A stretch of DNA of 64,000 nucleotides from Amoebophrya sp. A120 (GCA_905178155.1 CAJINV010000004.1:5992828-6056827); one strand, 5' to 3'; positions 6,749 to 50,452 are shown, counted from the stretch's first letter. Program-made: numbers and translations. Notes: generated from the letters alone by a model not told the origin.

Positions 6749-8322
6749 TTTCAGTGGAATTGTTTCTACTACGACTGCTAGTATTCTTCTATGAGAAAGA
6801 GTAAATGTTGTACACTTCTAGTACTTTGAAATTTGGGAAACTATCTCCCGCTTCGCCGCACTGAAGAAACTACAGAGCCATGAAGTTTTTGTTTTCTTTT
6901 TGTGTCGCGGAAAAATAAATTACAGCTTACATTGACATAAAAACGTAGGAGAGTTGTGTCGCTGGTGGCATCGTGGTACATGATCGTTTGTATGCAACAG
7001 AAGCAATGGAATTCAAGTGTGAGAGTGAGTACTGCTATTGCTTCTAGGACATCAATAGAAGCAACAAGAATCAATATCTTCAGTTCGTTCTTTTCCTTAG
7101 CGATGAGGCAAGAATGAATGTGCTGTCGCATCGTCCACATGGACTATCACAGCAAAATGAGTGGGATTGCCGGCAGTCGCGCCAAGTTCTACTTGCGAAA
7201 GGTTTTGATCTTGGAAGCAGGATGGATGTAACGCCAGTGGATGGGCGTATTGAAGTTGTTGAACGGTCGCGCCTCTTGCGCTGGCTTGCGACATTTCCTT
7301 TTCCTTCCTGATGTAGGGATGGAAATGGAATACTTAGCACAACTTACGACTGAGCTTGTTTCTGTTGAGCTTCAACATTGAACAGTTGGAACATCGACGC
7401 GAAAATCCTTTGACTGTGTGCTTGCTAATAGGCAAAAAATCTTTATAGTCGGAGCCTCGGTCTTCCACGTTATTATACAGTGTTTTAGTTTTTTGTTTGT
7501 ATGTTGCCGCCCCTTCTGTTGTTTAGTCGGACTTATGTACAGGCTCAGAAGGAGTCACAAAATAAATTGTTATAGCTGCTAAAGGAAGCTACTAATCATT
7601 CAGCGCAAACAAGTATGGTCGTGTAGCCGTCATTTTCGTCTTGTCTCTGCATGTGTACATTGATTTTGGCGAAACGACCGCACTTCCTGCTCTTCGTGTA
7701 CAGTTAATTCGAAAGTTTTTTTTCTAGCCAATCGTTCATGATATTACGGTGCGCAAGATATTGTCGTTCATACTGGTGGAATAAAGAAGTTTTGAGTTTT
7801 AGTATTATCTCATCAATAGCATGTTGGATTCTATTAAATTCATAGTACGATCCGCGTAGCATTCAGATGAAACAATAGAGAAACTTTATAAAGTGGACAA
7901 GCGTCGCTACATAAAGGGAAGAACGGGACAAATTATGGGGAGCGCTAAATGCTGATGAGCTTTTCAAGGTCAGCGTCGAAGCCACCGCCAGTCAAGTCAT
8001 ACATAAAAATTGCGTGGAAGGAAGTCTGAAGTTCTGTCCTGCTGTTCACTGAGTTCTATCCTGGAAAACGATGAAATCCAATACGAGTAGTTTCATAAGT
8101 CAAAAAAGTCATTGCAGCATTACTAGCTGCAGTGTCGAGTGTCACTTCGAAAGTTGTTCATATCATGTGTGATTCTTATCTATCATTCATCTTGCATATT
8201 TTTAGCGTTATTAATAGCACCAGCATGTTGTCGACACAACAAAAGTTAAGAAATGGTTTTCTGCAGTGGCGCTTCTCCTACATCACACCTCGCACCATTA
8301 CCATTTTCAACATCATGGCCTC

Positions 8323-11300
8323 CTACACCTCCACTACCTCATCCTCTCCGCTGAAAAGGGACGGCGAGGTGGAAGTACTATGTTCCGCAGTTCTACTACT
8401 CAAGCGGTCCAACTGCGATCTCCGTAGCAGGTCATTGGTCGTCGTTCCCTCCTCAGGCATCACTTCGTCGATAATATGCTCCTCGACCTCGAACTCGTAG
8501 CCCACCGCGGGAGGGACGGAAAAATTATCCTCCAAGTCGTCATCGTAGTGTCCCTGGTCGTCGCGGTCCGGAACTTCACTAAATGAAGATCCAGGACGAG
8601 GACTCGTCACAACATCCACATCGTCAACCTCAACATCTTCCGCATGATCATGAAGGTGTTGATTGCTGTTCCTCCTGTTGTTCATCGTAGCCGCCGGACC
8701 AGGACTACTTCTTCTATCATATGGCACGGAATTTTTCATCATGTAATAAGACGTGCCACCATGATCGTGTGCAGCATGTTCACTCGGATCTCCGAGTAGC
8801 AGCAAGCGGTGCATCTCTTCCTCGGCTTTTTCATCCCCATACGAGCGGAAGAATTCCCAACGGGACCTGCTCGCCTCGTCGGCTTGGTCCAGCAGTTTTT
8901 TCCGCCGCCCATACTCGGCTTCGTAGAAGTTCTGTTCTGGCTTGCGGTCTTGTTCTTCACGACTGGCGTTCTGGTTCTTGTGTCGTCCAACTGTTGTCGT
9001 CCCGTCAGCTTCGCCCCTGTCGTGGTCCTTTTCCTGCTTCTTATTTTCCTTCCTCGTGTGCGCTTCGATTTTTCCTCGAAACAGAGTCACGATGTGGGGC
9101 ATATGGAAGCGTCAGGTTTGAAATCGTCAAAGTTGAAGTAATCTGTAATGCATAAAATGCATGACCCGAGGTACGTGTGTTGCAGAGCAGGCAAGTGAGG
9201 CCGATTGTAAGCCTGTTTGGGGTTACAGCTCGAGCTGCTAAAGTAGCATGAGAAAATGACTCTTCTTTGCCTAAACAGCATGACAAACTGGATTTAGGGA
9301 CCACCGAGATTTGTCATGCGCCACTTGGAAACTGGGTTCCAACTGGCATCCATTTTATGCATGACAAATTATTTCAACTTTGTCGATTTCAACTCTGACA
9401 CATCCATAGGGCAACCAGCGCTCGTACACGTGTTTCGCGCCGAGGTGCAGCATATCAAATGCAAACATGTCTGGGTCTGGAAGAGTCATGCTGCTTTTGC
9501 ATGACACAGAAGGTCTGGGTCTGGGTCATGGAAGCTCTAGCGTCACAGGTTTCGAGAGGCTTCCGCAATGCCGAAACCGCGTGAGAAATGCGCCACTTTG
9601 GTGACAGAAACTAGTGGCAGTGGGCAGCTTTTGCCGCCTATGCATGAAAGATTTTTCTGTGTTGTGAAATGCGCAGCACAAGTTTGCATTCTTCCAGACC
9701 CAGACATATTTGCAATGTATACAGCACCGACCACCGCTCGCGCTGGTTTTGTCCCGCGGCGCTCTGGGCGCGCTGCAGTTTCGCCTTCGTGGCAGCGTCG
9801 TGGAGGTGGCGTGTGGATGCAGTGGCTTTGCCTGTGTCCTCTTTTCCGAGAAGTTATTACAGTGAAAAATGCCCCCACCCCCAAAGTTGCAATAATTTGT
9901 GATGCGAAGTCTCCAAATAAAAACTTTTATTTTGTCATGCGTGAAAGGAATATGAATCTTTGTGATGCAGAGTCTGGGCGTATATAGCATTGCTTGCATG
10001 ACAAGCGCCGATTTTGCTGGGATCTTTTGCAATACAAATTGTCGCTATTGTTCATCACGATTGGAAATCTGTGATGCTGCTAGATGCAAGAGGGCGAATG
10101 TTTCTCTTGGAAAGGTTTGCAATACAAATGCTCCCAAGTTCGGCGGTGGGGGCATTTTTCATTGTAATAGAAGTAGCTTTTTGTCTTCGCGGGAGAGCAC
10201 CCAGTCCTCTTCCTCGGGGGTCAGCGTCTTCCATGTGGAAAGAAAGTCGATAACGTCGTCCGGGCTGTCGGCCGCTGCTACGTCCACCGCCAGGGCGGCA
10301 GGGAAGTGCAGTGCGCGTTCGATCAGATGCACTAACCGCTGCTCGATGACGCGGCTGGGCAGCCCGTCGAGCGAGAATAACAGCGACGAGGCCGTCGAAC
10401 TGTGGCCAACATCTGCTTCGCTCTCGTCGCCGTAGTTGGGGGCCGAAGGGCCCGCGTTATTTCTGTAGTTTTTGTTCTTCCACAAGTTCTTTCGTAGAAA
10501 GGGTTTATTCCTGCTAGGACGATGAATTTCTTTCAGCTCTGCTTCCGCAAGCCCCCAGGTTATGTCATCGTCGGTAACCATCGGGGAGAGCCGGTGCCAG
10601 GTCCCAGAGCGCACCCGCTTCAGCGTCGCCAGCTCCTCCTGGCGCCGCTCCCACAGGCCCGTCGTCACGTGCTCCCACTGAAACGCGTTGGCTGCGGACT
10701 GCACGTAACGCAGGTAGGCCCCGAGCGGCGTGTAGTCGTGCAAAGCCACCACCGAATTGCGCAGCAGGGACAGAAGGGATATCGCCGCGAAGTCCTTGCC
10801 CGTTACGTGCGAGATGGAAGAGGAGAGCTTTGCGTATATTTCAAGTGGTCGTTTTTTATTCGTCCCGAACGTGCTCTCCTCTTGCTTCAGCAAAAAATCC
10901 AGCCGGTCATGCATCACCTTTACGTAGGCACCGATCACGGAGTGCGGGCCGGCGTCCGCGAAGTTGTGGTGCAGAAAGTTCGACAGCTCCAGTGTTTTCT
11001 TCTTCGCGGCAGCTTTGCGAGCTTCGGCTCTTGCTCTTCTTGCAGCAGCAGCATCAGCTCGGTTATCCACTACAGTAAATTTCCCGCACTTGTTGATGTA
11101 CAAAAAGCATCACAAATTTTGCCAACTTAGTAGAGCATGCCACTTGTCACGCTATCTAGGATGGAAGGCAAGCTTTGTCATGCAGAGACCGCATTTGTAT
11201 GTCTATGTCGTGTGCGGAAAATTTACTGTGGATATCTGTTCCTCCTCTTGTACTCGGTAGCGTTCCTGTTCAGCAAAATCGCTTTTGTGGATATCCTCTC

Positions 11301-14300
11301 TTCTTGCAAAAATGCTGCGTTCTTTATGCTCTTCATTTCCTCGTGCTGATGATCTTCCACATCGTTCTCGTTTTTTTTGTTCTTCTTCTTCTTGCTTCTC
11401 GCAACAATCCTGTATCGCTGTCCGTCGTCGCCAACAAACGAGGTATGGGTGTGTCAGGATCGAAATCGTCAAAGTTGAAATAATTTGCCATGCATAAAAT
11501 GGACGCCAGTTGCCACTCAGTTTCCAAATGGCGCATGACAAATTTCGGTGGTCCCTAAATCCCGTTTGTCATGCTGTTTAGGCAAAGAAGAATGGTTTTC
11601 TACATGCTACTTTAGCAGCTCGAGCTGTGAACCCAAATAGGCTTACAATCGGCCTCACTTGCCTGCTCTGCAACACACGTACCGCGGGTCATGCATTTTA
11701 TGCATTTGCAAATTATTATTATTTCAACTTTGACGATTTCAAACCTGACGCTTCCATACGAGGGCTCCTCCTCGTAGTGCTTCACTCCACCATACGCAAT
11801 GCGAAACCACGCCACCCACATCAACGCCAGTGCGACATTGTGCTTGGTGGCCCGCTATGCAATGCAAATATATCTGGGTCTGGAAGGTTGGAACTTGAAC
11901 TTGTAATGCTAGCTTTCCATACCTAGGAAATCTGTATTGTATAACCTACAACAGTCGCTGCAGCCTCTTTTGTACAATGAAAGCACGCAGTTTCTGATGC
12001 GGATTGCCTATGAGAAAGCGATCTGGAAAGTTGTCATGCTAGGTTGCATTCGGAACTGTTTCCATCATCCACATTTTAGCATCACAAGTTTCCAGACCCA
12101 GACGTATTTGCATTTGTGATACCCGCAAGATGCTGTACTTTGTCTCCACACACCCGTCGTCGCTGTGCGCCAGCGCTATGCTGTGCAAAAGTACTCGTAT
12201 TGCAATCATGTATTACAAATATCTTTCTTGAGCTAAATCCGCATCACAAATTTCATTTCTCATGCTGAGTAACTTTGTAATGCATTTCTACGAGTACGAG
12301 TACGATACTTTTGCAATGCATAAGCGCGGTGTGGTCCCGAAACGGGGCGGCCCGGCTGCAGTCCGGGACGTGAATCTGGGTGTAGGACTCCTTCCCAGCG
12401 ACGTCCAGAGTCTGAAGTGAGTGGCCCGCTCGCGCATCCATCTCCTCGGCCCGTCGTCCCGCCGCGGAGAGCTGCTGTGTTGAAGACAGATCGCGGCGGT
12501 AATTCAGGTCGAAAGGGTTCATGTGCCTTTTCATCAGAAACGAGGGGTACCTCGACGAGAATTTTCTATTGTGATGTTGCACGTCCGCTACTTTTTTCCG
12601 CACAACATACCGCACCAGGTGGTCCAACAAGTGTGCGCACCAGGGGGGCACGTGGCCGAGCGACGCTTCGTAGGGGGCCTTGCGCCACAGCAGGTGCGGA
12701 AAGTGCTCGCAGCCCAGCTTCCGTTCGATCACCCAGGAGGGAAAGCCCCGCCAGTGCGTGGCGGGGTTATGGAAGCGTCAGGTTTGAAATCGTCAAAGTT
12801 GAAATACTTTGTAATGCATAAAATGCGACACAAGAAGTGACTCTATTGCATAGGACCCACGGGAGGCAGATTATAGTCCTGTCAAGGGTCAAAAGTTGGA
12901 CTGCTAACTAGCATGACAGAAGGCAGCTCTTTTACCCTAAACCGCATGACAGACTCGCTTCCAGGACCGGGAAAATTTGTCATGCACCGACTACAAACTG
13001 TAGGTCTAACTGGTATCCGTTTTATGCATGGCAAATTATTTCAACTTTGTCGATTTCAACTCTGACACATCCATAGGGGTCCCCTTCGCGGTAAACCTGC
13101 AGCACATCGCCCTTTTTCACGTAGAGTTTGTGGCAGACTTCCCGCTGCCGGGTCGCGGCCTTCGTCCCAAGTACCTGGCGCAGGACCTTCGCGGAGGTGG
13201 AGGCACCGTCAAACAAGTAGAAGGGGTCGTGCCGGTATCCACAGAAAAAAAACCAATGCAAGCCACATCCATTTTTTGCATGGCAAACACATGACTTGAT
13301 ACGTGTTTTGCATGACAAATTGGATGTGGATGGGTTTTTTTCTGTGGATAGCCGGTTCCGGTACTCCTCTGCACCAACGGCCGCCTTCTCCGCTTCGCTG
13401 GCAAGCCAGGTGGCCTTTCTTCGGACCAAACGCCAACCGCCCTGGAAGGCGTGTTGCGTGGCTGCCCAGGACTTGTGAAGCCAATCCTCGTCTTGGTCTT
13501 TATTGTTCCCCCCGCCGGCGCCCTCCTCGGTGTTGTTCTTTCTGTCCCGCTCGGCCTTTTCCCTGCGCGCGATGCGGTCTATGCGGTGCGCGATGGCGAT
13601 GTATTTGGCCAGTTGGTGGCAGTGCTCTACCAGGTGCACCCCCTCCTGCCAGTCGCGGTATTCCAGGCTCCATCGCCCCACGACCTCGGGCCGCAGCATG
13701 GGTTCAATCATGGTCACCCAGACCTCGCGCGCCCACACCTCGGTCACACCCAAGTAGGCCAGGGTGAATTGGACCGAGCCACCGGTCCCGTCGGGAGACA
13801 GCCCCGCCTCGGGGTTCCGCACGGTGGGCAAAACGACCGTGGCGACCGCCCCCGTCCCGCTGTTTTGCGCAGCCTGCAACGACTGTGCGAGCGCGACGAG
13901 CCCGCTCGGCACTCGCTCAATCTTATTCCGCTTCTTCGCGTCGTAAGAAGCTTCTTCTTGGGAGGACTTCTGGTCCTCGGACTTGTAGTAGCGGTCGTGG
14001 TCGTGCAGGCGGCCGAAAACAGGTTGTTTTTCCAAGGGCAGGTCGTAGTCCTCCTCTTCGTCTAGCCGGAAGTCGTCGTTTTCTTTCCCGGCCGCAACCA
14101 GGCCCGGTTTGCCGCGGTCCAGGCCGTTGGTCGCGAGCCGTCCCTATCAAATGTAAAAATGTCTGGGTCTGGAAGAATGCAACTTGTCATGCTGAATCTG
14201 GAGCATGCAAAAATCTGTGTTGCATGATTACCAAAAGATGTCCACTTTTGACCAGTTCGACAGGGAGTTTCTCATGCAGGATAGGCACGATAGACACCTC

Positions 14301-17300
14301 ACAGCGTTTGTCATGCTAGGTGCTGCATTCCAGGCCTCATGGGTCATGGAAAAACTGCATCACAAATCTTGCATTCTTCCAGACCCAGACACTTTTGCAT
14401 TTGATAGTCCCGAGGGCGTGGGGTGCACGAAGTAGCCGGCGACTATCCAGGAAAAAACACCCATCCCCATCCATTTTTTGCATGGCAAATAGTTGACTTT
14501 ATGCATGTTTTGCATGACAAATTGGATGGGGATGAGTGTTTTTTTCCTGGATAGCGATGTCTTGCAGGAAAACGTCCTCCGAGGCCGTGCCCCACATCGC
14601 GCAGTCCCGGTAAAACTCTTCCGTTTGCGCATCGTGTTCGCGTTCCCCGGGCTCGCCAGATGTTGAACCGCTTGTCTGCGGCCCGCCACCGGGTGCTGTT
14701 GCATCCTGGCTGTAGTCCTGCCAATTCAGTGTGGGAAAGTCCTTTTCCATGGAGCACGACTGAGGGAGTAGACCTATGGACTGCAAAAGTATCGTACTCG
14801 TATAAATGCATTACAAATTTCATCAGCATGAGAAATAGAATTTGTAGTGCAGATTTACCTTAAGAGAAAAATTTGTAATGCATGATTGCAATACAAGTAC
14901 GATACTTTTGCACAGGATAAGACCCGCGGCGCGCCAAATCCAGTCGCCCAGGTCCATTGTGAAGCGGGGAACCGTATCAAATGTAAAAATGTCTGGGTCT
15001 GGAAGAATGCAACTTGTGATGCTGCATTTGGATTCCAAAAAAATCTGTATTGCATGAGTACCAAAGGGAATGCAATTTTTGCTCCGCTGAGAAGGCATTT
15101 TTCATGCGGAAAAGGCATCAGGAAACCCTCAGTAGAAAATCTGTATTGCTAGGATATGCATCACAGACATCATGGCTCATGCAAAACGTGCATGACAAGT
15201 GTCAGAATCTTCCAGACCCAGACACTTTTACATTTGATAAACCGCAAACGCCAAAATTCGCGGCAGCCCGCGCCGCATCAGGGGGTACAAACCAAGGTAA
15301 TCGACGTGCTCCGCCGAGTAGACGCGATTCCAGAGGGGCTGCAGCTCTTTGCGCAGGGGCTCCGTCTCCTGCCCCGCCAGAACGTCCTGCTCCAAAAGGC
15401 GGCCCAGCGAACCGTGCGTGAGCGGAAGCTTGGCCCCGACCGCGGGGCTGGACCGTACCTGGTAGGAAGAAAATCTATTACTTTCGCCGTCAATGTTGTT
15501 CTGTTCCGGACTAACCTCTTGCTCTTGATCTTCACTATCGGAAATAACGTCATCGTCGTGGTCTTTCTCTTTGCCCTGCTTGTCCTGCTTCATTTTTTTC
15601 GAGTCGAGTCGTGGCACCGCTTTTCCTGCGTGCGTGGTCAGCTGCTCGTACACATTTGATTTGGTCCATACGGGTTCTCCGCTTTGCAACCCGGGAACGA
15701 CATCCGTGCCTTCGAGCAGACCCCGCACGTACGTTTCTTTGCGGGTCGGGGCATAGTCGTGATGTGCTGGAGGACCTCTTCCCATTGATGTAGGTTCAAG
15801 CGCAACCACGACTATCCACAGTAAATCTAATTTCCCGCTGCACACGGGCAAATTCTGTGGCTTCCACATGTTGACAAGCACAAGCTCTTCCTTGAACCTC
15901 TCCAGCATGACCAATTGCTTTTTCTAAGTTGTTGAAATTTCAATTTGCATTTTTGTACATGTGCGGGAAATTTGTATTGCATATGATCTGTCATCGACGT
16001 CACCTCCTGCTGCAATTGCGCGCCAAAATTGGTGCGCTCGTGTTCGCTTTCCACGAGGGAGTCGACTCCGCGGCGAAAGGCGTCGAAGTAGCCCCCGCTG
16101 TACGCGGCTGTCGGCTTATGGTCCACATCCGCAACTTTGCTGAAGTAGAACCACCCGTCCTTGGCGCGGTCTTCTGGCCCCAGCATGCGCTCCCGGCGGA
16201 GACTCGCGCGGGCCATGACCTGCGCGATAGAAAGCCCCTTTTCCCACGGGGCAAATTCGTCGACATCTTCGCCGTAAAAAGTCTCGGGGTCCAGCATACC
16301 CTTCACTTTGTAAATATGGTCTGTCATTCCAAGAAGGGTTGCTCGGTCCTCGTAGTTGTGATCGACTGGTGATGAACCAAAATTTGCCTTCGTTCTAGTA
16401 CTAGTACTCACCTTCGCAGTACTTCTTCTAGTTGCACTTGATGTTGCAGCTGCCCTTACGACCCTGCTGCTGCTCTCGCTCTCCATAAAGGACGTCGAGC
16501 TGCTCGCCTCACTTGTACTTCTAGAGGTCGAAGTTGTGCTAGCCGTGGGCGCAGCGCCGTTCTGGTCATAAAGCTGTTGCAGTGGTCTCTGGAATTCCGC
16601 GTCGGCCTTTCGGTACCGAGCTACGCTCGCGTCGACATCGACCACATGGCTGCCCGGGGTACTGACCGGCGTGCCGTAATACAGGGGCGTAAACTCCAGC
16701 TCCTCGGCCCGATCGGGGATGCGGTCCGAACGCCCCAGTCGGTGCAGCTGGTGCGCGCCCCGGGCCGCGTCGGTGTATGCATTGCAAAAGCATCGCAGTC
16801 GCACTACTCGCATGAATTGCATCACAAATTTTGTCTTCAAACAATTTGTCATGCTAGTTTAGGTAGAAGGTTGGATTTGTCATGCACGAATGCATTTACT
16901 TTTGCAGAGGATACGGTGCGCGCAGCGACGATGGGGAAGGGCAGCCCCCCGGCGGGAAAGCGGACGCCGAACATGCCAGTGTCCCGGGTCCGGTCCACCG
17001 CACTCGGGTATCGTACGAAAAAAGTGTTTCACTGTGATTGATTTGCAAGATCTGCATCACAAGTTTGTTACATGACACAGAAAATTTGCCATGCGCGCTT
17101 CCCAAGGGAAAACACGGCTGAAGCTCCAACGTCTTGCAGGTGTAGCAAGACAAATAGTTCTGTGTTCCATTTTCTGCATCACAAGTTCACAGGAAACAGT
17201 TTTTTCGTGCNNNNNNNNNNNNNNNNNNNNNNNNNNNNNNNNNNNNNNNNNNNNNNNNNNNNNNNNNNNNNNNNNNNNNNNNNNNNNNNNNNNNNNNNNN

Positions 17301-20300
17301 NNNNNNNNNNGATATCGGCGGCAGCTTCAACAAAGCGCGGTGCCCGGATACCGACTCGTAGGCGTAATTGGTCTGGATATCCGCCGCCAGCCGTATGGGG
17401 TTCTCAAATGTGGTGTTCTCAGCTGGTGTCGCATGCATTTGATGTCATGCAGATGAACTACCTTAAGCTTAAGCCGCCAGGTAATCAAGCCGCTTCGCAT
17501 GACAAATTTACGAAGGGCTAATCAGCACCTAAAAAAATATGTCCCAAATCTGTGATGCGAAAGCAGCAACATCTGCAGCAAGCTTGTCCCTTTGACTGTT
17601 GCTGTGCTTGAATTACAAATTCATGTAACAATTGAGAATGTAACATTTGAGAGTCGCTGCATAAGGCGCACCAGCGGCGTCGAGCGATTGAGCCCCTCCG
17701 TTTCCTCTTCGAACCACGCGTTGGCGGACGCGGCCGACCCCTCCTTGCCGGCGGCCCCCTCCAGGGCATCCCACATGGCACGGCGCTCCTCCTGCTTGCG
17801 CTCCTTCTCTTCCTGTTCCGCGAAGATTTTCTCGATTTCGCGGGAGGCGAGCTGGCCGCGCGCGGTCCTGTCCATCGGGTTCTGCCGCGGCGCCGCGTAT
17901 GCATTGCAAAAGTATCGTACTCGAACTCGTATAAATGCATTACAAATTTCCTCAGCATGAGAAATAAAATTCGTAATGCAGATTTGCCTTGGAGACAAGA
18001 TTTGTAATGCAAGACTTGCATTTGAATTTGTACAAGTACGAGTACGATACTTTTGCACAGGATACCGCGCTGCGCATCCCGAACCGGTCCGCAAACAGGG
18101 CGGCGACCGTATCGCGAGGAAAATTGCCCCCACCCCCAAAGTTGCAAAAATTTGTGATGCGAAGTTTCCAAATGAAAACTTTTGAGACGGGTACGTGCTG
18201 AGGCCCAGACTTTTAATCGCGATGGCACGCTGAAGGTTACTATTTTTGCGTCGAGCATACCGTCGGGGAAAACAGGGGGCCCCCGCCTCCCGCCCTTTCG
18301 CCCGCTGGGTATCCTCCCCACAGGGGGGCCCCCGTCCCCGGCTCCCGCCCTCCCGCCCGCTGGGTAGCCTCCCCACCGGGGGGCCCCCGCCTCCCGGCCC
18401 GCCCGCAGGGGGGCCCCCGCCGGCCTCTCTCTTTCACTGGCCACGCGCAGGGGGCCCCCGCCTNNNNNNNNNNNNNNNNNNNNNNNNNNNNNNNNNNNNN
18501 NNNNNNNNNNNNNNNNNNNNNNNNNNNNNNNNNNNNNNNNNNNNNNNNNNNNNNNNNNNNNNNNNNNNNNNNNNNNNNNNNNNNNNNNNNNNNNNNNNNN
18601 NNNNNNNNNNNNNNNNNNNNNNNNNNNNNNNNNNNNNNNNNNNNNNNNNNNNNNNNNNNNNNNNNNNNNNNNNNNNNNNNNNNNNNNNNNNNNNNNNNNN
18701 NNNNNNNNNNNNNNNNNNNNNNNNNNNNNNNNNNNNNNNNNNNNNNNNNNNNNNNNNNNNNNNNNNNNNNNNNNNNNNNNNNNNNNNNNNNNNNNNNNNN
18801 NNNNNNNNNNNNNNNNNNNNNNNNNNNNNNNNNNNNNNNNNNNNNNNNNNNNNNNNNNNNNNNNNNNNNNNNNNNNNNNNNNNNNNNNNNNNNNNNNNNN
18901 NNNNNNNNNNNNNNNNNNNNNNNNNNNNNNNNNNNNNNNNNNNNNNNNNNNNNNNNNNNNNNNNNNNNNNNNNNNNNNNNNNNNNNNNNNNNNNNNNNNN
19001 NNNNNNNNNNNNNNNNNNNNNNNNNNNNNNNNNNNNNNNNNNNNNNNNNNNNNNNNNNNNNNNNNNNNNNNNNNNNNNNNNNNNNNNNNNNNNNNTGCCC
19101 GCGGGCCTCAGCACGGACCTAACCAATGCGGGGCTTTTGTTGAACACAGCTATTGCGCCCGCGGGCCTCACCACCGACCTAACCATTGCGCCGCTTGCTT
19201 CTGTTGAGCGCCTGGCCGGTCCCCTCGTTGGTGACTGTTCTGGGGGTGGTCCGCTCGTCCGCCCGAGGGGCCGCAACCGCAGGGCCCGAACCGTAAGGCA
19301 GAGTGGCGGGGAACAAGGCCCACCACACTGGGGCGCCCGCGCGCGGCGGCGGCGAACGGGCCCCAAAGCGTCCCCATCAATAGTGTTGTGGCGCGGGCCG
19401 AAGGGAAAGAGAGGCGCAGCGGCAATACTGCCCGCGCGCGCCATCACATTGACACCCGGAAGCGGAGCCGTGATACTCGGGCGGGCGTGCCGAGGAAGTT
19501 CGCGACGGCGGTGGTGGTTGTGGGTTGGTTGTCAAGTTGTCTCGTTGGCAATGCGTCAGTTTTCAAGTTGGTTGCCCATACGCCAGAACGACAACACAAC
19601 TGACAACCAACAACAACCAACCGAAGAGGAGACACAGCCGACATGCGCATGTCCATTCTCAGCGCGACACAGTGGACACATCCCCCACATGCGCAGCAGC
19701 CAGCGCGCGCGCGCTGGAAATACTGCCCACATGCGCCAGCGCAGTCCCGCGTGGAAGTTGGGCAACCGGGCGCGCCGTGGTTCGCACAACAAAACTGCCG
19801 AAGTTGAGCGATTAGCACAAGTGGAATCGAAACGCGGCCCATACCGCCCTGGTTCGGCGCAAAATGTAGGGATGGTTGCACGGCGAGTTGCGCCGTGCAA
19901 CTTGCCGTGCAACTCGGGCCATACCATCGCGATTCGCAACGCAAAACGTGCAAAAGATGCACGAGTTGCACAAGTTTCCGGGAAATCTCGGAAGGGCCAT
20001 ACCATCCTGGTTCTGCGCGAAATGTTGCGATAGTTGCACGGCGAGTTGCACCGTGCAACTCGCCGTGCAACTCGGCCGTACCGTGGTGATTTGCAACAAA
20101 AACGTGCAAAAGTTGCACGAGTTGCACAAGTTCCCGGGAAATCTCGGAAGGCGAAAATTCCGGGACCCCGGAAAGAGATGAAGAACAGCAAAGAGAGCGG
20201 ATTGGAAATCCGTGCTGCCACGAATTCCCAATCCGCATGGTATGGTGGGCTTTGGCCAGTAGAATTGCTATGTTTCCATAGCCTAAAAAAAGGCGCTCCA

Positions 20301-23300
20301 CGAGGGCACCACGCCCGGGTATATACGCAAGGTTTGACCCCAATCAGGGTGCTGCGATGGATTTTTCTGGGCCTCAGCGCGTACCGTTCTGGAACTTTTT
20401 GTCATGCATGAAAGGAGTATGAATCTTTCTGATGCAGATTCTAGGCGTGTTTCGCATCGCTTGCATGACAGACGCCGCTCTTGCTGGGATCTTTTGCAAT
20501 GCAAATTTTTGCTATTCACGATCGGAAATCTGTGATGCTGGTAGATGCAAGAGGGCGAATGTTTCATTGATTTGAAAAGGTCTGCAATACAAATGCTTTC
20601 AAGTTCGGGGGTGGGGGCATTTTTCATTGTAATAGACCGTCTGACTCCACAGCAACCGGTGAATCCCCTGGTCCACCGAGGTCGGGTTGACCCCGGCGTA
20701 CAGAAAGTACTCACTCCCGCCCGTTCGCGCCAAATAGGCCCGCTCGGAAACAAGCAACTTCTCCGCCTCGATGCTACTCGCGTCACGACCCGAAACTACT
20801 CCGTTCTGGTCCTCCTGCTGCGCCAGCTCTTCTTCACGGCTCATCTTTACGTTGGCAAACTTGCTGGAGGCACCTCCGCCCCCGGTCGGGCTGTCCGCAA
20901 ACTCGGGGTGATACACCTGCAGGAGCGGTCGCACGATGGTGCCGCCCTCCTCGAGAACCGTGGTGGTGGAACCCGCGAAGGTGGGGTCAGTCGCGACGGC
21001 TTGGTTCAACTCCCGCGCAATCTCCTTCCAATTGGTGTTCACACGATAGTATCCTGTGCAAAAGTATCGTACTCGTACTAATTGCTTTTATGCATTACAA
21101 ATCTTTTTCTGAAGGCAAATCCGCATTACAAATTTTTTTTTGTAATGCTGAGCTAATTTGTGTTGCAATTTATACTAGCACGGTGCTTTTGCACAGGATA
21201 GATAGCGCACGTGATACTCGCCGCCACGGGAGGAGGCTCCAGCCTGCGCCGCAAAAAGCTTCAGTAGGGATCCGGCCTCCTTTTGCGCTAGGTCGGCGTC
21301 GGCCTGCAGTCGCCTGGCCGTCTTCAGCCACGCCGCGCGCTCCTGCTCCACGTTGCGGCCCCCTAGCAGCTCCTGCGATTCGGTATCTTCCTCCACATCA
21401 AAGTCGCTTACCTGGTAGTAGTACCTCTTTGATGTATCGCTTGATGAAGGTGATGTACTTTCGTCTAGCCCTAGCAATTCCTGCTCTTGGTCTGATGTTT
21501 CAGAAGAAGTTCCGTCACCAGGATTTGATAATGATGATCTCGTCGCTGTTGTGCCCATGCCCTTTCGTCTACTACTAGAAGTCTCTTTCACAAGGGAGTA
21601 GTCCAGCTCTGCGGCATCGCGGTGCCACCGCTCTCGGATCTTGAAGCCCAGATACAGCACGTTGTGCAAGTAGAGCCTTTCCCCGCTGGTCGAGATCGTG
21701 TCTAATTCGATCGCAAATGGATCTTCGTCCCCGTCTTCATCAAACAAGGTCGTGGTCCCGTCTTCTTGCGCTTGATATCCGAAATTGGTGGCCTCATCTT
21801 CATCTTCGATCGGTCGTACGGCTCCACTGCGGGGGCCCTTGCTTGAAGATGTTGTTGCGAAGGGGCCGGAGTCGTCGGATTTCTTATTCGTTCCCATTTT
21901 TCCGTACAACACGGGCAGCAAAGTCCACGCTGAGGCGCCCGCGGAACTTATGTACTCGGGCCACTTCACGGCGGTGCACCATTCGTTACTGCGACCGCGA
22001 CACGACGTGATGTCCTCGTCCGGAAGGTTTTTAAAGGCTTTTTGCAGCTCTTCATCGCGTTCGTCTACTTCGGCCCCCTGGTTCTTGTGGATGTCATAAT
22101 TCTGCAGCTCGGCGACCAGTTCTTGCAGCTCAAGGTTTATCCGCTGCTGCTCTTCGCTGAAATACCTGGCCTCGCCCTTGGTAAACCAGTTCCAATTTTT
22201 CGTCCTGGAATTATACAAGGGACGGCCAGGCCCAGAATAAACCTTCTCCTTGCCGTCCCGCATGGCTTGGAGCTTCCTTCGGGTTTCCGCCTCCTCCCGT
22301 TTTTGCGCTTCGTTTGTAACTGCGGTCCACGCGCGCAGAAACCCCAGGCTGCTGATCGACGCTCGGAGGCCGCCCCCGGCCAACGCGATACCCGCCGGAA
22401 GCTGGTGCCACGGCTCGGTAAACCGCCCGGCGTAGTTTTCCAGCGCCTCGGGAAACTTGCGCCAATTCACGGCAAGAAACTTGCGCGCAGGAGCAGTTCG
22501 TGCTGGCGCTGGGGGTTCTTTGCTTGATATTCTTGTAGTTGCCTCTCCTTTTTTCGTTGCTTTCGTCGTCCCAACTTTACTTTCTGTCGTGGTCGTCGCG
22601 CTTGAAGATGAAGTTGAAGACGCAAGCGTCGCTTTCGTTGTTTCAGATTTTTTGGCGTAGAAGTTGCGGTTGCTCTCGTGTCGGTCAGCACCCCCTACTA
22701 TTCCGGCCTTTATTTCATTTTCAACGCGATCGCGAGCGGTGATTTCATCAGCCTTTTATAGAGACGAAAAAGGTGATCTTCAGCAGTGTTCTTATCCCTA
22801 AAGGAATTCGCAGCATACCGTCGGGATTTGCCCTGTTTTTGGCGCCAACGCAGGCGCTGCAGCTTTTATGGTCGCGCCTGCGTAGGAGTGCTGTTGCCTT
22901 CCCTGGTGGGTTTGTTTTTTCACGCGGCCCAGGCGTCTTTCTAGAGGAACCAACAGGCACGCTAGCACCCCGGCGAGCCTAGACATAGACTAAAGAGGCC
23001 CCCCCCACTGCGCAGATCGACGCGCCCCGCGGGCACTCACAACACACCCACCCGGCTCAGGCGGGCATCTTTTCCGCGGCCCCGAGCCCGACGCACTCGC
23101 GACCCAAAAAAGGCCGCAAGCCGGCTCGCGCAGACTTGGTGCGCAGGCCCCTCGAGACCTCTTGGAACTCTTCAAGCGCGCCCCCATCTCTCACCCGCCG
23201 CCCCAATCACTCACCGTTGGCACCGGACCGCTTTCGCGGCCGTGGTGAACGCACTGGCAGAAGACCCGAAAAGCTTCCCGCCTGATGTTCGTTTAAACGC

Positions 23301-26300
23301 TCAAAAAAGATAGATAAGAACGCCTACTGCAACGACCTGTGATTGATGTTCCCGCTCTCGAAGACTGCTGCTCTTATCCTCCACGCCGTGCATAGATAAG
23401 AGCACGTTTGTAACGACCAGAAATTGGTGGCTGGCACGAAGCAGAATGACATCTTCTGCGCCAGATGTTCCCGCTCTCGCAAAAATGCTGTTCTTATCCT
23501 CCAAATGGGGCATCAGCTCGCGCCCAGGCGCGCGAACTTGGACGCAGTGGCCGGCGGTTATTCTGTCAGCGCGCAGCGCGTTCCCTGGCGCATGCGCTGG
23601 GGCTGCGCTAAGCACGAAAGCGCGACCCTCTGGAGGATGCGCGGCGAAGGCTTTGGATAGCCCTGGGCGGTCTCGCTTTTGTTGGCCTCAGACACGCCAG
23701 GCCTCGCCTAGAATGAAAAAAACTCACGAATCGCGACGGTATGGCGCGATTTCTCTTAGGGATAAGAACACGCGGGAAGATCACCTTTTTCATCTCTATA
23801 CCTTTATTTCATTTTCAACGCGATCGCGAGCGGTGATTTCATCAGCATTATCACCAACAACTCGTCCGTTGTAGTTGTGGTAGTTGCGGCGGTACCAGGG
23901 CGTACTCAGTACGGCAGGAATGGAGTGGTACATGCGGTACTGCAACTGAGGATTGTAGCAGTAGTGCAAGGCCGAGGCCTGAAAACGCACGTGCGCGGGC
24001 GGGTGGTCGGGGATCGCGCTCGAACCCAGCTTGGAGGTCACCAAATCCGCATACGCCAAAGCAGCCTCGCTGTCTTGCCGGGACACCGAGACATACTTCC
24101 CGGTGGTGGACATATCAAATGTAAAAATGTCCGGGTCTGGAAGAATCCGAAATTTGTTATGCTGTTTTTGCATGACACAGAATGTCTGTCATGGAAGCCC
24201 TAGCATCACAGATTTTCAGAGGCCTTCATGATGCCTATTTCGCATGACAAATGCCCTCGACGCGTAGCACAAACCGGACTCCCCTTGCTGGTCATGCAAT
24301 ACAGAATTTTTTAGAGTCCAAAGTTAGCATCACAAGTTCCAACCTTCCAGACCCAGACATTTTTACATTTGATAGGACATGGGATCCCGCAAAAATTGCG
24401 TCAGGTGGTGGTCACTGTTCGGAATGTCCTCCACGTCATACTTCATTGGGCCAGTCTTGCTGGTCGCAGTCGGGTCGTAAGGATAAAAGCCACTTCTAGT
24501 TCTACCTCGTTCTAGCTTAGGCTCACTATCTCTACTCTGAAGCACGACATCATCGTCCGGCACAGATGAGGAAGTTGACGGGGTCGTCGTGTGGTCTTCC
24601 TCTACTAGCGCACGTCGTTCTTCTCCCACGAGGCCCCGCCCAACAAGCTGCGACGACAGGCTCTGGCGGGCAACCTCGTGCTCTTCCAGGTCCTCGACGG
24701 TGTCTGGGTACCGCACCGCGTACACCTCGTTGAACCGGTTTTCCATCGCGGACCGGGCGATCGTCTTGCAGTAACACTGCATCATGTCAGCCCCGTCGCT
24801 CTCGTCGGATCCCGGCGGCCAGGCGGCCATCAGCGTCCCCACCCAGGCGGCACTCATGCTGTACACCGTTCCGTGGTGGCAGGGGTTCTGGCCCTCTTCC
24901 TCGTGCTGCTCCAGGTAGTCAAACGGCTCCCCGATGGCCGCCGGCGTTCCCAGGCTGTGTGCGGCTTGCCGCTTCTCCAGGATCTTCGCAATGCTCAGCC
25001 GCTCCTGTACAACATCTTCGGGTACTTCGGATGCTACTCTTGATGACTTCTGGCCGTTTGGACCTTGTATTTCATCGACTTGGTCTTGTTCTGTAGACCA
25101 CGGCATTAGCCACACCTTTCCCGGCAATCGCAGTTCGCCCGGGCGCGTCAGAAACAGCCCAGCAGGGTCGTTCATTTTTCTCGTTGTACTCGTCGCAGCT
25201 CCTCGACCGGGGTCCACCACAAAGATTTCGCCGAATAGCGTGCTTAGACTAGGCATCGCTTTCAGCATCTGGTGGTTGGACGCAGGAGCGGGGCCGTTCC
25301 ATCCTGTGCGCTGAATGGCCTCTTGCGCGTTCGGCGTGGTTTTTGTGTCTTTCCAGCCTCGGGGCGCGACGAAGTAGGCGAGCTCGCGCCCGTAGGTCTG
25401 GATGACGAACCCCCCATAGGGCTCTGCGTCGGACCGCAGCTCGTGGCCGGGCGTCAGCGTGTCATACACGGTCTTGTCGAGCAACTTCGCGCGGCAGTCG
25501 TGATACAGCTCGCACCACCCGGTGTGGTCCCAAAAATTTAAAAAGTTGCAACCCTTCCGCAATCTCTTCGCGTATTTCATCTTGCTGGTCTTCCCTTCGA
25601 CGATATTGTTCTCGGTGTTCTTCATCTTCTCGTCAGTCTCCGTGGCAGCCACTGTACTAGGAACGTACACGTCCACGTCGGATGCGGTGACGGCCTCGAG
25701 GGTCGTGAACTTTTGTGTCCGATCTAAATCCGTCACGTAGTTCTCCACCAGTTCATTTGCTGAGGTCGACGTAGAGGCACTAAATCCATCAAGACCTTCG
25801 TGAACATCTTCATGTGCTGCAGCTGGAGGATCAGCCTTACGTAGTTGACCGACGTCAATATCATCTTCCCTGCTGCTCCGGTTTGTTTTCATCCTTTTCC
25901 CCCCCGCCCCCTTCGCCAGCAGTGCAGCGGGTTCCAAATAGTCCGCCTCGTCGCCGGCCTGCAGACAACGCCGCTTGCATTCTTCCAGGTCTTTCGCGGT
26001 GGAGGCAGCTGCGGTTTCAATGGTGCCCCACGCGGTGCTTCCCGTCACCGAATGCACCACCCCCTGGGACCAGCGCTTGACCCCGTCCCACATGTCTCCC
26101 TCGGGCACGTACATGTCCACTTTGTCGCACCGCGCGGGCCCCTCGGACAGAAAGGCCATGACAGGGTGCACCACCACCTCGTACCTCTCCGCAAGCTCGG
26201 GGTCGTTCTCGGTCGGATAAGGAGATGAAGGGGGTTTATGATCTTGCCGATCCTCTTCATTCTTGTCCACATCTTGTTTTCTTTTGGTGTCCTCTCCTGT

Positions 26301-34466: not shown

Positions 34467-37400
34467 TTAAACTGCTGAAGAAGACGTTGCGCAGGTGCAT
34501 CGACACGTAGCTACTGCCACGCTGTTCATCATGCCCTGGTCATCGTCAAGGTCCTGCTCGTTGTTCCCCGGCGGAAGATACAACGAACCACTGCGGCGGC
34601 ACCACGGGTGACTGCACGCCGGCCATGACCTTCGCGTAATTGGCCTATTACAGTGAAAAATGCCCCCCACCCCTGAAATTGCAAAAATTTGTGATGCGAG
34701 GTTTCCAAGTGAAAACTTTTTGTCATGCATGAAAGGAGTATGAATCTTTCTGATGCAGAGTATAGACGTGTATCGCATCGCTTGCATGACAAGCGCCGCT
34801 CTTGCTGGGGTCTTTTGCAATACAAATTTTTGCTATTGTTCACGATTGGAAACCTGTGATGCTGATAGATGCAAGAGGGCGAGCGTTTCATTTGGAAAGG
34901 TTTGCAATACAAATGCTCCCAAGTTCGAGGGTGGGCGCATTTTTCATTGTAATATGGCCTGGATGTCGTTTAACCCGGCTTCAAACCGGTTTGCCACGTT
35001 CGTCTGCATGAGTTTACTCCTTCCGCTCGCGTGGCCGCCGCGAAGGGTCGTGAGCCCGTGGAACGAATCCCCGCCGTCGCCGTCGCGAAAGAGCAGCGAC
35101 TCCTGTCGGGCGTGATTCTTGTTGTACAATGTTGTCAATGGCGCCTCTCTACTATTTTGATGCGCGGGGGCCATCACCGGAGAGCAGCCCGGGGAAGGAC
35201 TAGTTGCAGCTGCTACGGTGGTGCTCACGCGCGGGGGCTGGATCGTGTTGGTCAGGTTCGGCATATTACAACTACTGGCGCGGTTAATATTAAAACTCAT
35301 CATAGAAGTTCCGGAGGATGATGTCATCGAAAGCAAATTCGCGTTCAAAGTCGTGCCAAAATTCAATTTCGCCGTGGGAAGGACGTGGAAGGACTCTGTG
35401 CGGGGGAACGAGTTCGAATGCGCCGGCAGGTTAATATTCATCCTCCCGCGGGTTGCGGAAGCCGAACGGAGACCACGTTGCTGCTCGTCCTCGGGAATGG
35501 AAGTCGTGTTTTGAAGTTCAGCGTCGTGTTGTTCACGATTTTCATCACTGGAAGGAGCAATGAGCCCTGCACTCGATGTGGTCACCTTCGCAGGCGAGAG
35601 GCTGCGGGCCTGTTATGCGTCGATTGATCTTTATGTATTGGTTTAGTGAATCTGCAATATCTAAAAAGAACAACAATCCACCAGTTGAAGAAAAAAAAGA
35701 ATCGAAATAGAAAATGAAAATGACATCAAACAGAAACAAACATAAACATTACTATAGCAGGTACGTTCAAAAAACTTCTCCCCGAAGGAGCTGCTCCTCC
35801 TCCCGCCGAGGGCATGACCCGTAATTCGAACCCATGCGTGCCCACCAGGGGCCGCGTGAACCCGCCCGGTGCGGGGTTCCACCGATTGATATGCATTGCA
35901 AAAGTATCCTACTACGTAGAAATAGCACGACAAATTTTATCGCGAAGGAGAAAACGTAGAATTTGTAATGCTGATTTACCTAAAATAGGAGATTTGTCAT
36001 GGTGCATCGCCGCAATTACTACGAGTACGACACTTGTGCACAGGATACGTGATGTTGCTTTGCGAATCCGTTTCTACCTGCGGCACCACCCGCCGCCGAT
36101 CCCGCGGGGAGTCTAACGTACGCGGCGACATTAGAGACAGTGATGCTCCGTTCGTAGTAGAATCATCGGTAGTTGGTCGTGTCGGTGCTCCTCTAGCCTG
36201 TCGAGATGAAGACGACGAGTAATTATCATCCTGCTCCGCACGACCGGGTAGCAACTGTCGCGCAGCTAGTACACCAGCCGAAGTGGACGTCGGTGCGCCC
36301 CCGCGGAGGCTACGCACGCTCTCGCTGCGAAGGAAAGCGGGTGGGGGAGGGATTACAGGTGGTCCACCTGCTGCAGGGTTGAAATTATTCTGGCTATTGT
36401 TGAATACCCCCGTGCTGGTCGTCGTGACCACCGCTGGGATCTTCGCTGGTACCCCCAAGGTCACCGGCGTGTTCACTGCAGTGAGCGGGTTGGCGAACAC
36501 CGGAACGTTGAGTCTACGGGTCGTACTTGCTTGCGTCGCGGTCGTTGTTGCTGTGCCCATGATCAGCGGTGCTGTCGTGGTCTTGTTCAACATGTTGCCC
36601 GCGTAGCTTGCAGACGCGGAGATGAACTGTGGCTGCAAAATCTGGATCTCGATCTGGTTCGGTAACGCATTTTGTCGGGCTCCTACTTCTAAGCTCGTCG
36701 ACACGTTGCTATTATTTTCAACAATCTTGCCAGAAGTACTATTTTTCGACGAGTCCGGGGTTCGATTTGGTCCTGCTGTGTTCTTCGACGCTGCCGGGCT
36801 GCGCAGTTGCTGCATGTGTTCGCTGGTGGTAAAGTTAATATGCGTTTGTTTCGACAAGCTACCGCCACCAGCATTTGCAGCACCTCCACTGACCGCACTA
36901 TGAACATCTTCTTGCGGAGTCTCTCGCCCATCAACAAGCGGCAGTACTTCTTCCCCGGCCGCCCTCGCCGCGGCTTCATCACCTCCACGACCGCCCACCA
37001 CGCCCCCCGGGGGCGCAGAGAGCAGCACCGGCTCCGGGCTTCTGCCCTTCCGTTTCACCGCTTCGTAGTCCACGGCGAGGGTTCTGCCCCGCGGCGTGAC
37101 CTGGACGATGAAGTCTTCGAAATTTGACCGGTACTTCTCCAGCATACTCGGTTCCGTTTCTATCTCGCTCGCCCTGCGGTTCAGGAATTTCTTGGATTAT
37201 CAAAATGAACAATCCCCCCTCCCCATATTGAAACGGAAATTTCTGCTGCTGGATTTGTATACACAAATCAGCTCTGTCGCGCACTAGAGGACTGCAGGCC
37301 CATGTCGCGCCAATGAATGCAAAGAGGTTTTGGCCTAGTCGCTTAGCATGAGGAACGTCTATGCTGTAGGCCCAACAGCATTACAAACGACTTGCATAGT

Positions 37401-49990: not shown

Positions 49991-50452
49991 GATTCGCGCC
50001 GTCCTTCGCGGTCTTTCCCCGCCGGCACAGCGTCGATTTCGGGCACCGCGGCAAACCGGCGCACATTTTGGAAGATTTTGGAACGCACTCGAGTGCAGGG
50101 CATCGCGGCAAACCGGCGCGCATTCTCTCGATTCTCAAGGCCTCGGGTGGTTGTGCGGACGCCTCCTGTTTCTGTGTGGTTGTCGCATCTCGATCCTGCT
50201 GCTGGTTGTCAACGCGCCGCTTTGACAACCAGCAACACGCTGACAACTTGGAAGAACCAAGCCGAAACAAGAAATGTGCGCCGGTTTGCCGGTGCCGGTG
50301 CCCGTGCCCACCGCCAACGCGGCAAGGGCAAGGACCCCTAAGGCGGGAGCCTCTGGCGCAAGGGCGCACCCGCCCCGGGCTGGCCGGGTGTCCGTCGGGG
50401 AGGGAGTGAAACCCCGCGACGCCGGCGCAGTCCGAGGGGCAAGCACGAATAT

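Follow-up and report, generated by a model that had tools for sequence, protein, structure and literature searches.

Host genes and inserted elements

The window, by which we mean the whole stretch of 64,000 nucleotides that was analysed, holds genes interrupted by repeated elements with terminal inverted repeats (TIRs) and target-site duplications (TSDs). The first-pass annotation had placed all host genes on the minus strand. This is supported by long minus-strand frames (1513, 1161, 1056, 1046, 666, 476, and 459 codons), by two annotated proteins that map to this strand, and by GT-AG introns that read on it. At the element at 450, the frame length is ambiguous (+179 versus −166 codons). Neither this element nor the one at 6412 has an RNA joint among the matches listed. 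The main features are as follows.

8326-15485, minus strand: host gene with 13 elements; 1,367-codon spliced open frame; a transcript contig reaches 7516
34549-41883, minus strand: P0002 gene (Amoebophrya sp. A120, 1,713 aa); 7 introners and 2 GT-AG introns
51620-53603, minus strand: P0003 gene (Amoebophrya sp. A120, 159 aa); 5 introners; 3′ end approximate
56180-56499, no strand assigned: family G copy in the opposite orientation to 37198, within a minus frame of 459 codons (frame evidence only)

The three family C copies had been claimed to lie in one gene, and they do. The best unspliced frame of this gene has 373 codons; removal of the 13 elements at the RNA joints yields a single minus-strand frame of 1,367 codons, within 7516-15486. 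The gene probably extends to about 17001 (1,766 codons). Four exons of it were scanned against Pfam with no match, and overall none of 13 exons reached the cut-off. The P0002 gene includes the family G copy at 37198-37523, and its family A copies face both ways (38275 versus 35890 and 39254). The five introners of the P0003 gene (53169, 52697, 52409, 52000, and 51681) all have imperfect TSDs. The length of P0003, 159 aa, was predicted from the window before the database match. For a further gene at 44333-47693, the best protein matches are a 52% paralogue and weaker ones.

Identity and anatomy of the elements

The elements are the published introner elements of the marine parasite Amoebophrya sp. 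A120 (Farhat et al. 2021, PMC7789003), because P0002 and P0003, two window genes other than the 13-element gene, match Amoebophrya sp. A120 proteins at 100% identity. Family C has the properties by which A120 introners are defined. The joints in its gene are RNA-like with non-GT-AG borders (13/13), and the three C copies can be read as GT-AG in no register. In each copy, 12 of the first 16 end positions are complementary and the TIR spans about 58 nt; the definition asks for an inverted repeat of 8-20 nt or more. All copies have a perfect 5-nt TSD, the definition being a 3-5-nt direct repeat over the exon/intron boundary. With three copies in the window, the family is repeated. In sequencing run X5, the summed depth of the element bins is hundreds- to thousands-fold over background, a figure that is not a copy number. 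Family C starts with TATGG and lacks the A-run at positions 11-13, and so departs from the inverted-repeat consensus given for A120 in PMC7789003 (TAT, 7 variable nt, at least 3 A). Most other elements carry the run, with an A at each of these positions in 35-38 of 41. Family C is an atypical family that nevertheless falls within the A120 introner definition.

The TSD is perfect in 29 of the 43 catalogued elements and matches at 3 or more of 5 positions in 42, the TSD having been among the selection criteria. Lengths of 110-373 nt, TIRs, a 5-nt TSD, and no coding capacity are the traits of a non-autonomous, MITE-like TIR DNA transposon. No transposase was found in the window, no long frame lies within the 1,044-nt element, and PMC7789003 reports no putative transposase found in A120. 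A search of Rfam gave no match.

Canonical U2 intron ends (GT or GC with AG) can be read in only 3 of 41 elements, in any register. Within the last 60 nt, the branch-point consensus YTRAY is present on the sense strand in 11 of 43 elements and on the other strand in 12 of 43. The CTGAC in the family C TIR was considered as a branch site and rejected; it is not common to other families.

Removal from transcripts

Assembled contigs of one sample, from runs X1-X4 (marked ‘RNA?’ only), pass over every one of the gene's 13 elements, and each skip takes exactly one 5-nt TSD with it. Removal of the element plus exactly 5 nt restores the reading frame in all 13 cases. The elements and their joints are given below, with no strand assigned.

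9102-9408: family C, orientation 1, 307 nt, perfect 5-nt TSD; joint 9096→9409 (312 nt), 4/4 runs
9453-9721: family B, flipped relative to 11856 and 14975; joint 9447→9722, 4/4 runs
9855-10169: family F; joint 9848→10169, 4/4 runs
11064-11234: family D, TSD mismatch at position 3; joint 11058→11235, both=2, 4/4 runs
11444-11758: family C, orientation 2 (flipped), 315 nt, perfect TSD; joint 11437→11758 (320 nt), 4/4 runs
11856-12121: family B; joint 11850→12122, 4/4 runs
12177-12322: family A, flipped relative to 14775; joint 12171→12323, 4/4 runs
12768-13075: family C, orientation 1, 308 nt, perfect TSD; joint 12762→13076 (313 nt), 1/4 runs (X1)
13236-13350: family E, internal motif in one direction only; joint 13230→13351, 2/4 runs
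14145-14406: family B; joint 14139→14407, 4/4 runs
14444-14553: family E, TSD mismatch at position 1, internal motif in one direction only; joint 14438→14554, both=4, 4/4 runs
14775-14919: family A; joint 14769→14920, 1/4 runs
14975-15239: family B; joint 14969→15240, 1/4 runs

The three runs without the joint at 12768 have little depth there. The rebuilt segment 7516-14734 measures 4,580 nt, which is the length of the X1 contig. Two GT-AG introns (204 and 187 nt) are likewise missing from the X1 contigs by exact arithmetic, and the depth of these contigs is uneven. The 15 joints listed comprise those of the 13 elements and two that were discounted because their contigs were taken to come from elsewhere; these two (9408→14443 in X4 and 13075→14443 in X2) run from a family C end to a family E start, side 30-31. 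The raw RNA runs X8 and X9 gave 15 and 3 reads, all of them partial matches within repeats. The DNA-like run X5 has a flat depth of about 43-53 outside the elements, and its long contigs enter the elements by 24-30 nt or more at background depth, so the elements are not absent from genomic DNA in the manner of internal eliminated sequences (IESs). This holds for the 15 of about 2,010 X5 joint rows that were listed; contigs drop rare forms, so rare empty sites could escape.

Both orientations are removed

The first-pass annotation described family C as inserted both ways, and the alignments bear this out. The copy at 11444-11758 is the reverse complement of those at 9102-9408 (90%) and 12768-13075 (74%); in the same orientation, 9102-9408 and 11444-11758 share 65% identity only, and the 9102 and 12768 copies share 78%. 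After 60 nt of TIR had been cut from both ends, the flipped alignments score z = 32.3 and 12.5 against shuffles, and the same-orientation ones −0.2 and 1.5. The flip is therefore a property of the unique interior and not an artefact of the TIRs. The family G pair (37198 versus 56180) is likewise flipped (z = 23.8, versus 6.9 in the same orientation). The proposed family B pair (450 versus 6412; z = 7.4 versus 2.1) is real and is the weakest example; 450 versus 62667 is clearer (z = 21.7). Families A and B also lie both ways in the 13-element gene: 12177 and 14775 are 83% identical when flipped versus 69% in the same orientation, and 9453 aligns flipped with 11856 and 14975 (z = 4.6 and 6.4). 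The orientation tallies in the window (C 2:1; B 5:3; A 6:3 with 4 uncalled; G 1:1; D 2:1; F 3:0; E 2:0 with 1 uncalled) are too small for a test of bias.

Within this one gene, elements of families A, B, and C leave at the same boundaries (element plus 5 nt) whichever way they face, and no cryptic sites appear among the joints listed.

A cut probably polarised along the transcript

The same first reading took removal to be strand-symmetric. The junctions speak against this: on the 5′ side the cut appears to lie 1 nt outside the TIR, and on the 3′ side 4 nt outside it. An imperfect TSD can show the register of a junction. Eight junctions with imperfect TSDs, two from RNA contigs and six from annotation, have only register 4 in common, in which the intron runs from 1 nt before the TIR (N-UAU) to 4 nt past it (AUA-NNNN). 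The sets of permitted registers are as follows.

Contigs: 11064 {3,4,5}; 14444 {1-5}
P0002: 35890 {4,5}; 41180 {2-5}
P0003: 53169 {4,5}; 52697 {2-5}; 52000 {0-4}; 51681 {0-4}

At 11064, the transcript retains at least 3 nt of the upstream TSD copy. All five junctions that tell register 4 from its mirror, register 1, exclude the latter (chance 1/32 if polarity tracked element orientation 50:50). A constant slide of the aligner to the left or right is ruled out, because the sets exclude a uniform 0 or 5. Register 4 is pinned from above by two junctions and from below by two, on the assumption of one register and not a mixture; six of the eight junctions come from annotated proteins, not reads, and that annotation used transcript alignments. 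The junction at 450 is silent in the likely frame, and the one at 52409 is uninformative on register.

At register 4, none of the 43 elements is GT-AG, and there are 30 different boundary pairs. Any base occurs at +1 (C17, G13, A9, T4). The element at 14775 is the sole one of the 13 that can be read as GT-AG, in register 1 only. In Table S4 of PMC7789003, all nine predominant non-canonical A120 pairs have T at +2 and any base at +1, a table that may carry aligner bias. In strain A25, the repeats begin with TTA and the listed boundaries with TT. The legend to Figure 3 of the same paper terms the splice positions variable. From these eight junctions, and with one register assumed, we infer that the fixed offset of 1 nt before and 4 nt after is the cut rule. 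We found no published account, for the A120 elements, of either the two-way behaviour or the offset.

Mechanism

Folding predicts that the TIR ends pair on either strand, as had been proposed: 9-16 of the 16 end positions are predicted paired in all 13 elements. The ends of all 13 would thus be held by base pairing of the euglenid type on both strands, which is expected of any TIR. For the first TIR bases of three elements (9453, 11856, and 14775), folding predicts no in-register pairing and a stem that forms further in, which weakens a strict ruler placed at the base of the stem.

Our preferred reading, to which we give a probability of roughly 0.6, is that these are either-orientation introners whose hairpin ends are read as a ruler by a modified, probably U1-less spliceosome with the fixed 1/4 offset. 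A non-autonomous DNA transposon would insert and duplicate 5 nt, a presumed event that matches the anatomy observed. The same TIR at both ends would give a pre-mRNA that runs from UAU to AUA in either orientation, as the sequences have it. The ends would pair, and the element plus exactly 5 nt would leave with the frame restored, as at the 13 joints. The cut would be N/UAU...AUA-NNNN/, in which U+2 and A+3 come from the TIR, like a GUA donor minus its G; the acceptor would be fixed by distance and not by sequence, if the single register of the eight junctions holds. Catalysis may fall to U2, U5, and U6. The branch nucleophile could be the last A of the 3′ TIR (−5) or A−7, which is a guess; A−5 would pair with U+2 and hence adjoin the 5′ cut. 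The branch A proposed about 6 nt from the 3′ end in Stentor introns counts in favour of this, and the unwinding or fraying that a branch A at −5 within a stable stem would need counts against it.

A hairpin model and the loss of U1 were already proposed for A120 introners in PMC7789003, which reports nearly all spliceosomal proteins and U2, U4, U5, and U6, with U1 not detected. That the cutter itself is a hairpin-guided, U1-less spliceosome is our best guess, at about even odds. Only tentatively would we extend this to a general rule, by which any TAT...ATA insertion, in either orientation and at any target, becomes a silent intron: the TIR stem would replace both U1 and the AG acceptor, cuts would fall 1 nt before and 4 nt after the stem, and an A of the element's 3′ TIR would be the branch point.

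The same elements and offset could also be served by a structure-guided endonuclease, independent of the spliceosome and staggered at the hairpin base, together with an RNA ligase. Such a route is modelled on tRNA splicing, or on what is suspected for euglenid nonconventional introns. We consider it unlikely, though a serious alternative. It would suit elements that have no G+1, no AG, and no branch consensus, a ruler-like staggered cut around a stem, and a genome in which U1 was not detected (PMC7789003); euglenid TIR/TSD introns are moreover reported to be released as full-length circles without lariats (PMC11282704). Against it, U+2 and A+3 fit a spliceosomal donor, GT-AG introns coexist in the same genes, and the TIR-derived non-canonical introns of Fritillaria are reported to be removed by an adapted spliceosome (PMC11282704).

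The first-pass annotation had proposed fully symmetric recognition that needs the hairpin and a bidirectional internal motif (TGTNATGC/GCATNACA), a version that we find quite improbable. The density of the motif in elements is about 30- to 45-fold that outside (5.0 and 5.2 versus 0.17 and 0.11 per kb), and the two strands carry it equally often (48 versus 50). However, the elements at 13236 and 14444 carry one direction only and are removed, and the one at 1619, with only the opposite direction, is removed by contig arithmetic. Removal of the motif-free 1,044-nt element restores a frame, the place of the motif relative to the 3′ end varies between families, and the cut is asymmetric. As a branch point (GCATNACA resembles UnAy), the motif was rejected, as it is not on the sense strand of the removed elements at 13236 and 14444. 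A strict 42-bp motif lattice was not upheld; the spacings cluster at 31-35 and 47-49. Most likely, the motif is a DNA-level site, for a transposase or for chromatin, and not a splicing signal. The argument that directional spliceosomal signals imply non-directional recognition is also not supported, since introners of Polarella and Aureococcus splice both ways. With a TIR of about 58 nt in family C, a directional machine would meet near-identical 5′ and 3′ ends either way. The symmetry comes from the identical ends and does not exclude such a machine.

That the elements are cut from DNA like ciliate IESs, or are absent from an expressed allele so that the contigs copy an element-free template, is scarcely credible: the TIR and TSD anatomy would suit a transposase and X1-X4 are marked ‘RNA?’ only, but the X1 contigs also lack the two GT-AG introns and have the uneven depth of RNA, X5 contigs enter the elements at single-copy depth, and the cut follows transcript polarity at all five informative junctions.

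Significance

The introner system is already known; the cut rule is testable and was not found in print. More than 60% of A120 introns are reported to be removed without GT-AG or a detectable U1 (PMC7789003, PMC11282704). A fixed, transcript-polarised cut, if true, would mean that one rule lies behind splice sites that look varied. Its indifference to orientation and target would explain how the elements flood exons at little cost. Two-way insertion is less surprising, because it follows from identical ends and has precedents. If the general rule were true, a single invariant geometry would underlie the tens of thousands of ‘variable’ splice sites, and the spliceosome would read RNA structure, not sequence, at both ends. 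The offset rule names the exact nucleotides (U+2, A−5, and A−7) at which lariat and endonuclease chemistry could be told apart, and with imperfect TSDs the register could be read across the whole genome in data that already exist.

Comparison with known systems

The introner-like elements of Polarella glacialis and Aureococcus anophagefferens are likewise TIR/TSD introns inserted both ways with the mRNA unchanged, and one Polarella class has a 5-nt TSD, as here (bioRxiv 10.1101/2020.10.14.339549; Huff et al. 2016 as cited there). The window shares the two-way trait: in one gene, families A, B, and C each occur facing both ways. Splice sites in Polarella and Aureococcus are GT, GC, or GA with AG, borne by the element or drawn from a constrained TSD (same preprint); in contrast, the window elements lack near-canonical splice sites, need neither dinucleotide, and have an unconstrained TSD.

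Euglenid nonconventional introns resemble the window elements in their non-canonical borders, TSD-like repeats, and TIR pairing that joins the ends (PMC11282704). Their pairing is reported to start near +4/−6 with a purine/pyrimidine border consensus, whereas here the stem lies at +2/−5 and +1 is any base. Fritillaria borealis has MITE-derived introns with TIR borders, for which an adapted spliceosome is reported (PMC11282704; bioRxiv 10.1101/2025.08.15.670264). It prefers AG-AC and AG-AT, in contrast to the 30 different pairs in 43 elements found here, and reports describe its U1 and U2AF as altered, whereas U1 of A120 is reported as undetected (PMC7789003).

The closest system is that of the A120 introners described in PMC7789003, which are, as here, repeated non-canonical introns with inverted repeats that start with TAT and 3-5-nt direct repeats. 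A term search of its main text and supplement returned no statement on element orientation. The splice position is given there as variable or unknown, whereas one register fits all eight informative junctions here.

Elements and their orientation

At least 43 short elements that begin with TAT, end with ATA and are flanked by 5-nt direct repeats were catalogued in the window. The repeat was itself one of the selection criteria, and a few further elements stand outside this count; it is perfect in 29 of the 43 elements and matches in three or more of five positions in 42. Element lengths group near 110-116, 138-188, 255-291 and 298-334 nt. One minus-strand gene (the focal gene, 8326-15485) hosts 13 elements, among them three copies of family C.

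Family C elements in the focal gene, with their joints in RNA-like contigs
9102-9408, family C; joint 9096 to 9409, four of four runs
11444-11758, family C, opposite orientation; joint 11437 to 11758, four of four runs
12768-13075, family C; joint 12762 to 13076, one of four runs

The copy at 11444 is reverse-complemented relative to those at 9102 and 12768 (identity 90% and 74% flipped, 65-66% unflipped). With 60 nt trimmed from each end, the interiors give z scores of 32.3 and 12.5 flipped versus -0.2 and 1.5 unflipped, which bears out the orientation assigned in the first-pass annotation. The flips it had listed in family G (37198 versus 56180; z 23.8 flipped, 6.9 unflipped) and family B (450 versus 6412; 7.4 and 2.1) also hold.

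The exon at 36048-37190 is 100% identical to P0002, an Amoebophrya sp. A120 protein (gene 34549-41883, minus strand), and that at 53499-53603 is 100% identical to P0003, a 159-residue A120 protein (gene 51620-53603, minus strand). P0002 is spread over 10 exons, and its annotated introns are seven elements and two GT-AG introns. Farhat et al. 2021 (PMC7789003) describe A120 introner elements as repeated non-canonical introns with inverted repeats starting in TAT and direct repeats of 3-5 nt. Family C fits this definition and differs from most elements here in lacking the A-run at positions 11-13, whose bases are present in 35-38 of 41 elements. The element at 52000-52319, annotated as an intron in P0003, also lacks the A-run; one end reads TATGG as in family C, and its interior is unrelated (z 1.8 both ways).

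Several other features were seen. A 1,044-nt element at 22757-23800 has a 72-nt terminal inverted repeat (TIR) and a perfect 5-nt target-site duplication (TSD), with neither the internal motif nor a long frame inside. We class it with the other elements as a long form; when it is taken out with 5 nt, a frame of 1,046 codons lengthens to 1,570 and further to 1,710, which is frame evidence only. The repeats that flank a family E-like element at 55136-55251 are inverted, not direct (TSD 0/5), yet a frame of 476 codons results when the element is taken out with 5 nt. More element ends, at 17009, 18110 and 20393-20634, lie beside assembly gaps or belong to truncated family F copies. GC-rich tandem arrays with units of 114 and about 19 nt occupy 49122-51205. 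A minus-strand frame of 1,056 codons at 44333-47693 holds a single element (45353); the closest match of its product is an A120 paralogue, 52% identical, with internal repeats.

Assembly gaps (N runs)
17211-17310
18464-19095

Removal from transcripts

Contigs of four putatively RNA runs from one sample (X1-X4) were placed on 8400-15500 at 98% likeness. Of the 15 joints listed, 13 each leave out a single element together with exactly 5 nt, and every one of the 13 elements in this interval has such a joint; nine recur in all four runs, one in two and three in a single run. The remaining two joints, with 30-31 letters on a side, connect an end of one element to an end of another; we attributed them to other loci and did not count them. 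Joining at the 13 points shortens 7516-14734 to 4,580 nt, which equals the X1 contig in length, and opens a minus-strand frame of 1,367 codons. X1 behaves as RNA: two GT-AG introns, of 204 and 187 nt, are missing from it as well, with an exact match in gap length. A fifth run, X5, behaves as DNA: its depth is flat (about 43-53 between elements) and its contigs enter element ends. The raw RNA runs X8 and X9 have no coverage of this locus.

Removal in both orientations, as first proposed for family C, is thus seen in these RNA-like contigs for three families within one gene, each time as element plus 5 nt: in family A, 12177 is opposite to 14775, and in family B, 9453 is opposite to 11856 and 14975. 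Removal from RNA is very probably independent of element orientation. A family D copy with a poor TSD (15813-15983) is flipped relative to 3367 and 11064; taking out 176 nt there extends the focal frame to 1,766 codons from 17001, and 173 or 179 nt also keep the frame.

A probable fixed and polarised cut

We define the register k as the number of TSD bases retained from the upstream exon. A perfect TSD hides the cut among six equivalent registers; imperfect TSDs reveal it. The contigs allow k = 3-5 at 11064 and 1-5 at 14444; P0002 allows 4-5 at 35890 and 2-5 at 41180. For the five elements of 51620-53603, a product of 159 residues and the residues for each register were predicted before the search, which returned the 159-residue P0003; it allows 4-5 at 53169, 2-5 at 52697, 0-4 at 52000, 0-4 at 51681 and any register at 52409. 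Only k = 4 is compatible with every one of the eight informative junctions, six of which rest on annotation itself built from transcript alignments. The imperfect junctions 45353, 30090, 55136 and 57405 lie outside the eight, and 450 is silent. We assume a single fixed register and hold it to be likely (probability about 0.75); the intron would then begin 1 nt upstream of the 5′ TIR and end 4 nt downstream of the 3′ TIR.

The mirror register, k = 1, is excluded at all five junctions able to separate it from k = 4; therefore polarity follows the transcript, in a window whose genes all lie on one strand. Removal had been described as strand-symmetric; the cut is asymmetric. All nine predominant A120 boundary pairs in Table S4 of Farhat et al. 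have T in second place and any base first (PMC7789003), as k = 4 predicts, though bias of the aligner may play a part. Read in this register, the 43 elements show 30 different boundary pairs, none of them GT-AG. The GT-AG intron at 35610-35764 ends in ATA followed by 4 nt ending in AG, the same geometry; it may be an old element turned canonical, or chance.

Recognition and catalysis

Within the 9,567 element bases there are 48 copies of the motif TGTNATGC and 50 of its complement, versus 9 and 6 outside them. The motif centre always lies more than 31 nt from the element ends, with a peak at 35-50 nt. The motif is present in a single direction in elements 13236 and 14444 and in just the opposite one in 1619, and all three are removed. 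Recognition had been ascribed to a TIR hairpin together with a bidirectional motif. The hairpin part agrees with folding, which predicts paired ends for all 13 elements whichever strand is folded (in three of them the first bases are out of register); the motif is not required in both directions, and removal of the motif-free 1,044-nt element restores a frame (frame evidence only). A transposase-binding site is expected to look like sub-terminal repeats in both directions. Because the motif resembles this, we read it as a putative DNA-level signal, and its spacing from the ends, with the length clusters, suggests a DNA-packing or transposase constraint.

The ends of an element are near-copies of each other (about 58 nt in family C), and therefore a directional machine meets UAU first and AUA last whichever way the element faces. 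A symmetric enzyme is unnecessary. Farhat et al. 2021 already propose a hairpin and find U1 snRNA undetectable in A120 (PMC7789003). We give roughly even odds to a modified spliceosome guided by the TIR stem. At k = 4, U+2 and A+3 would come from the TIR and resemble a GUA donor minus its G; the stem would pair U+2 with A-5 and so bring A-5 beside the 5′ cut, while distance would set the acceptor position. For the 15-nt introns of Stentor, a branch A near the 3′ end has been proposed (PMC9505925). Counting against the spliceosome, no branch consensus was found in the 43 elements (YTRAY within the last 60 nt: 11/43 on the sense strand versus 12/43 on the other), and no lariat is seen in these data. 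Its principal competitor is removal by an endonuclease and a ligase, as is suspected for euglenid introns (PMC11282704).

Relation to known introners

A term search of the accessible text and supplement of Farhat et al. 2021 found no statement on element orientation in A120, and the Fig. 3 legend gives the border position as variable or unknown (PMC7789003). No later account of the A120 register was found in the literature searched, which included available parts of PMC11453091 and bioRxiv 10.1101/2025.08.15.670264, with most subscription journals outside its scope. A 2022 introner survey permitted opposite-orientation insertions (PMC9860276); a 2025 survey demanded same-orientation ends and lists A120 as introner-rich (PMC12130899). 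Both datasets may hold A120 orientation counts. In several Polarella classes and in Aureococcus, introners make introns in either orientation (bioRxiv 10.1101/2020.10.14.339549); those use near-canonical sites, whereas the A120 elements are GT-AG in 0/43 cases at k = 4. The A120 introner system is already known; insertion in both directions is to be expected and has precedents, and is here shown inside one gene. The part worth pursuing is the fixed, polarised cut.
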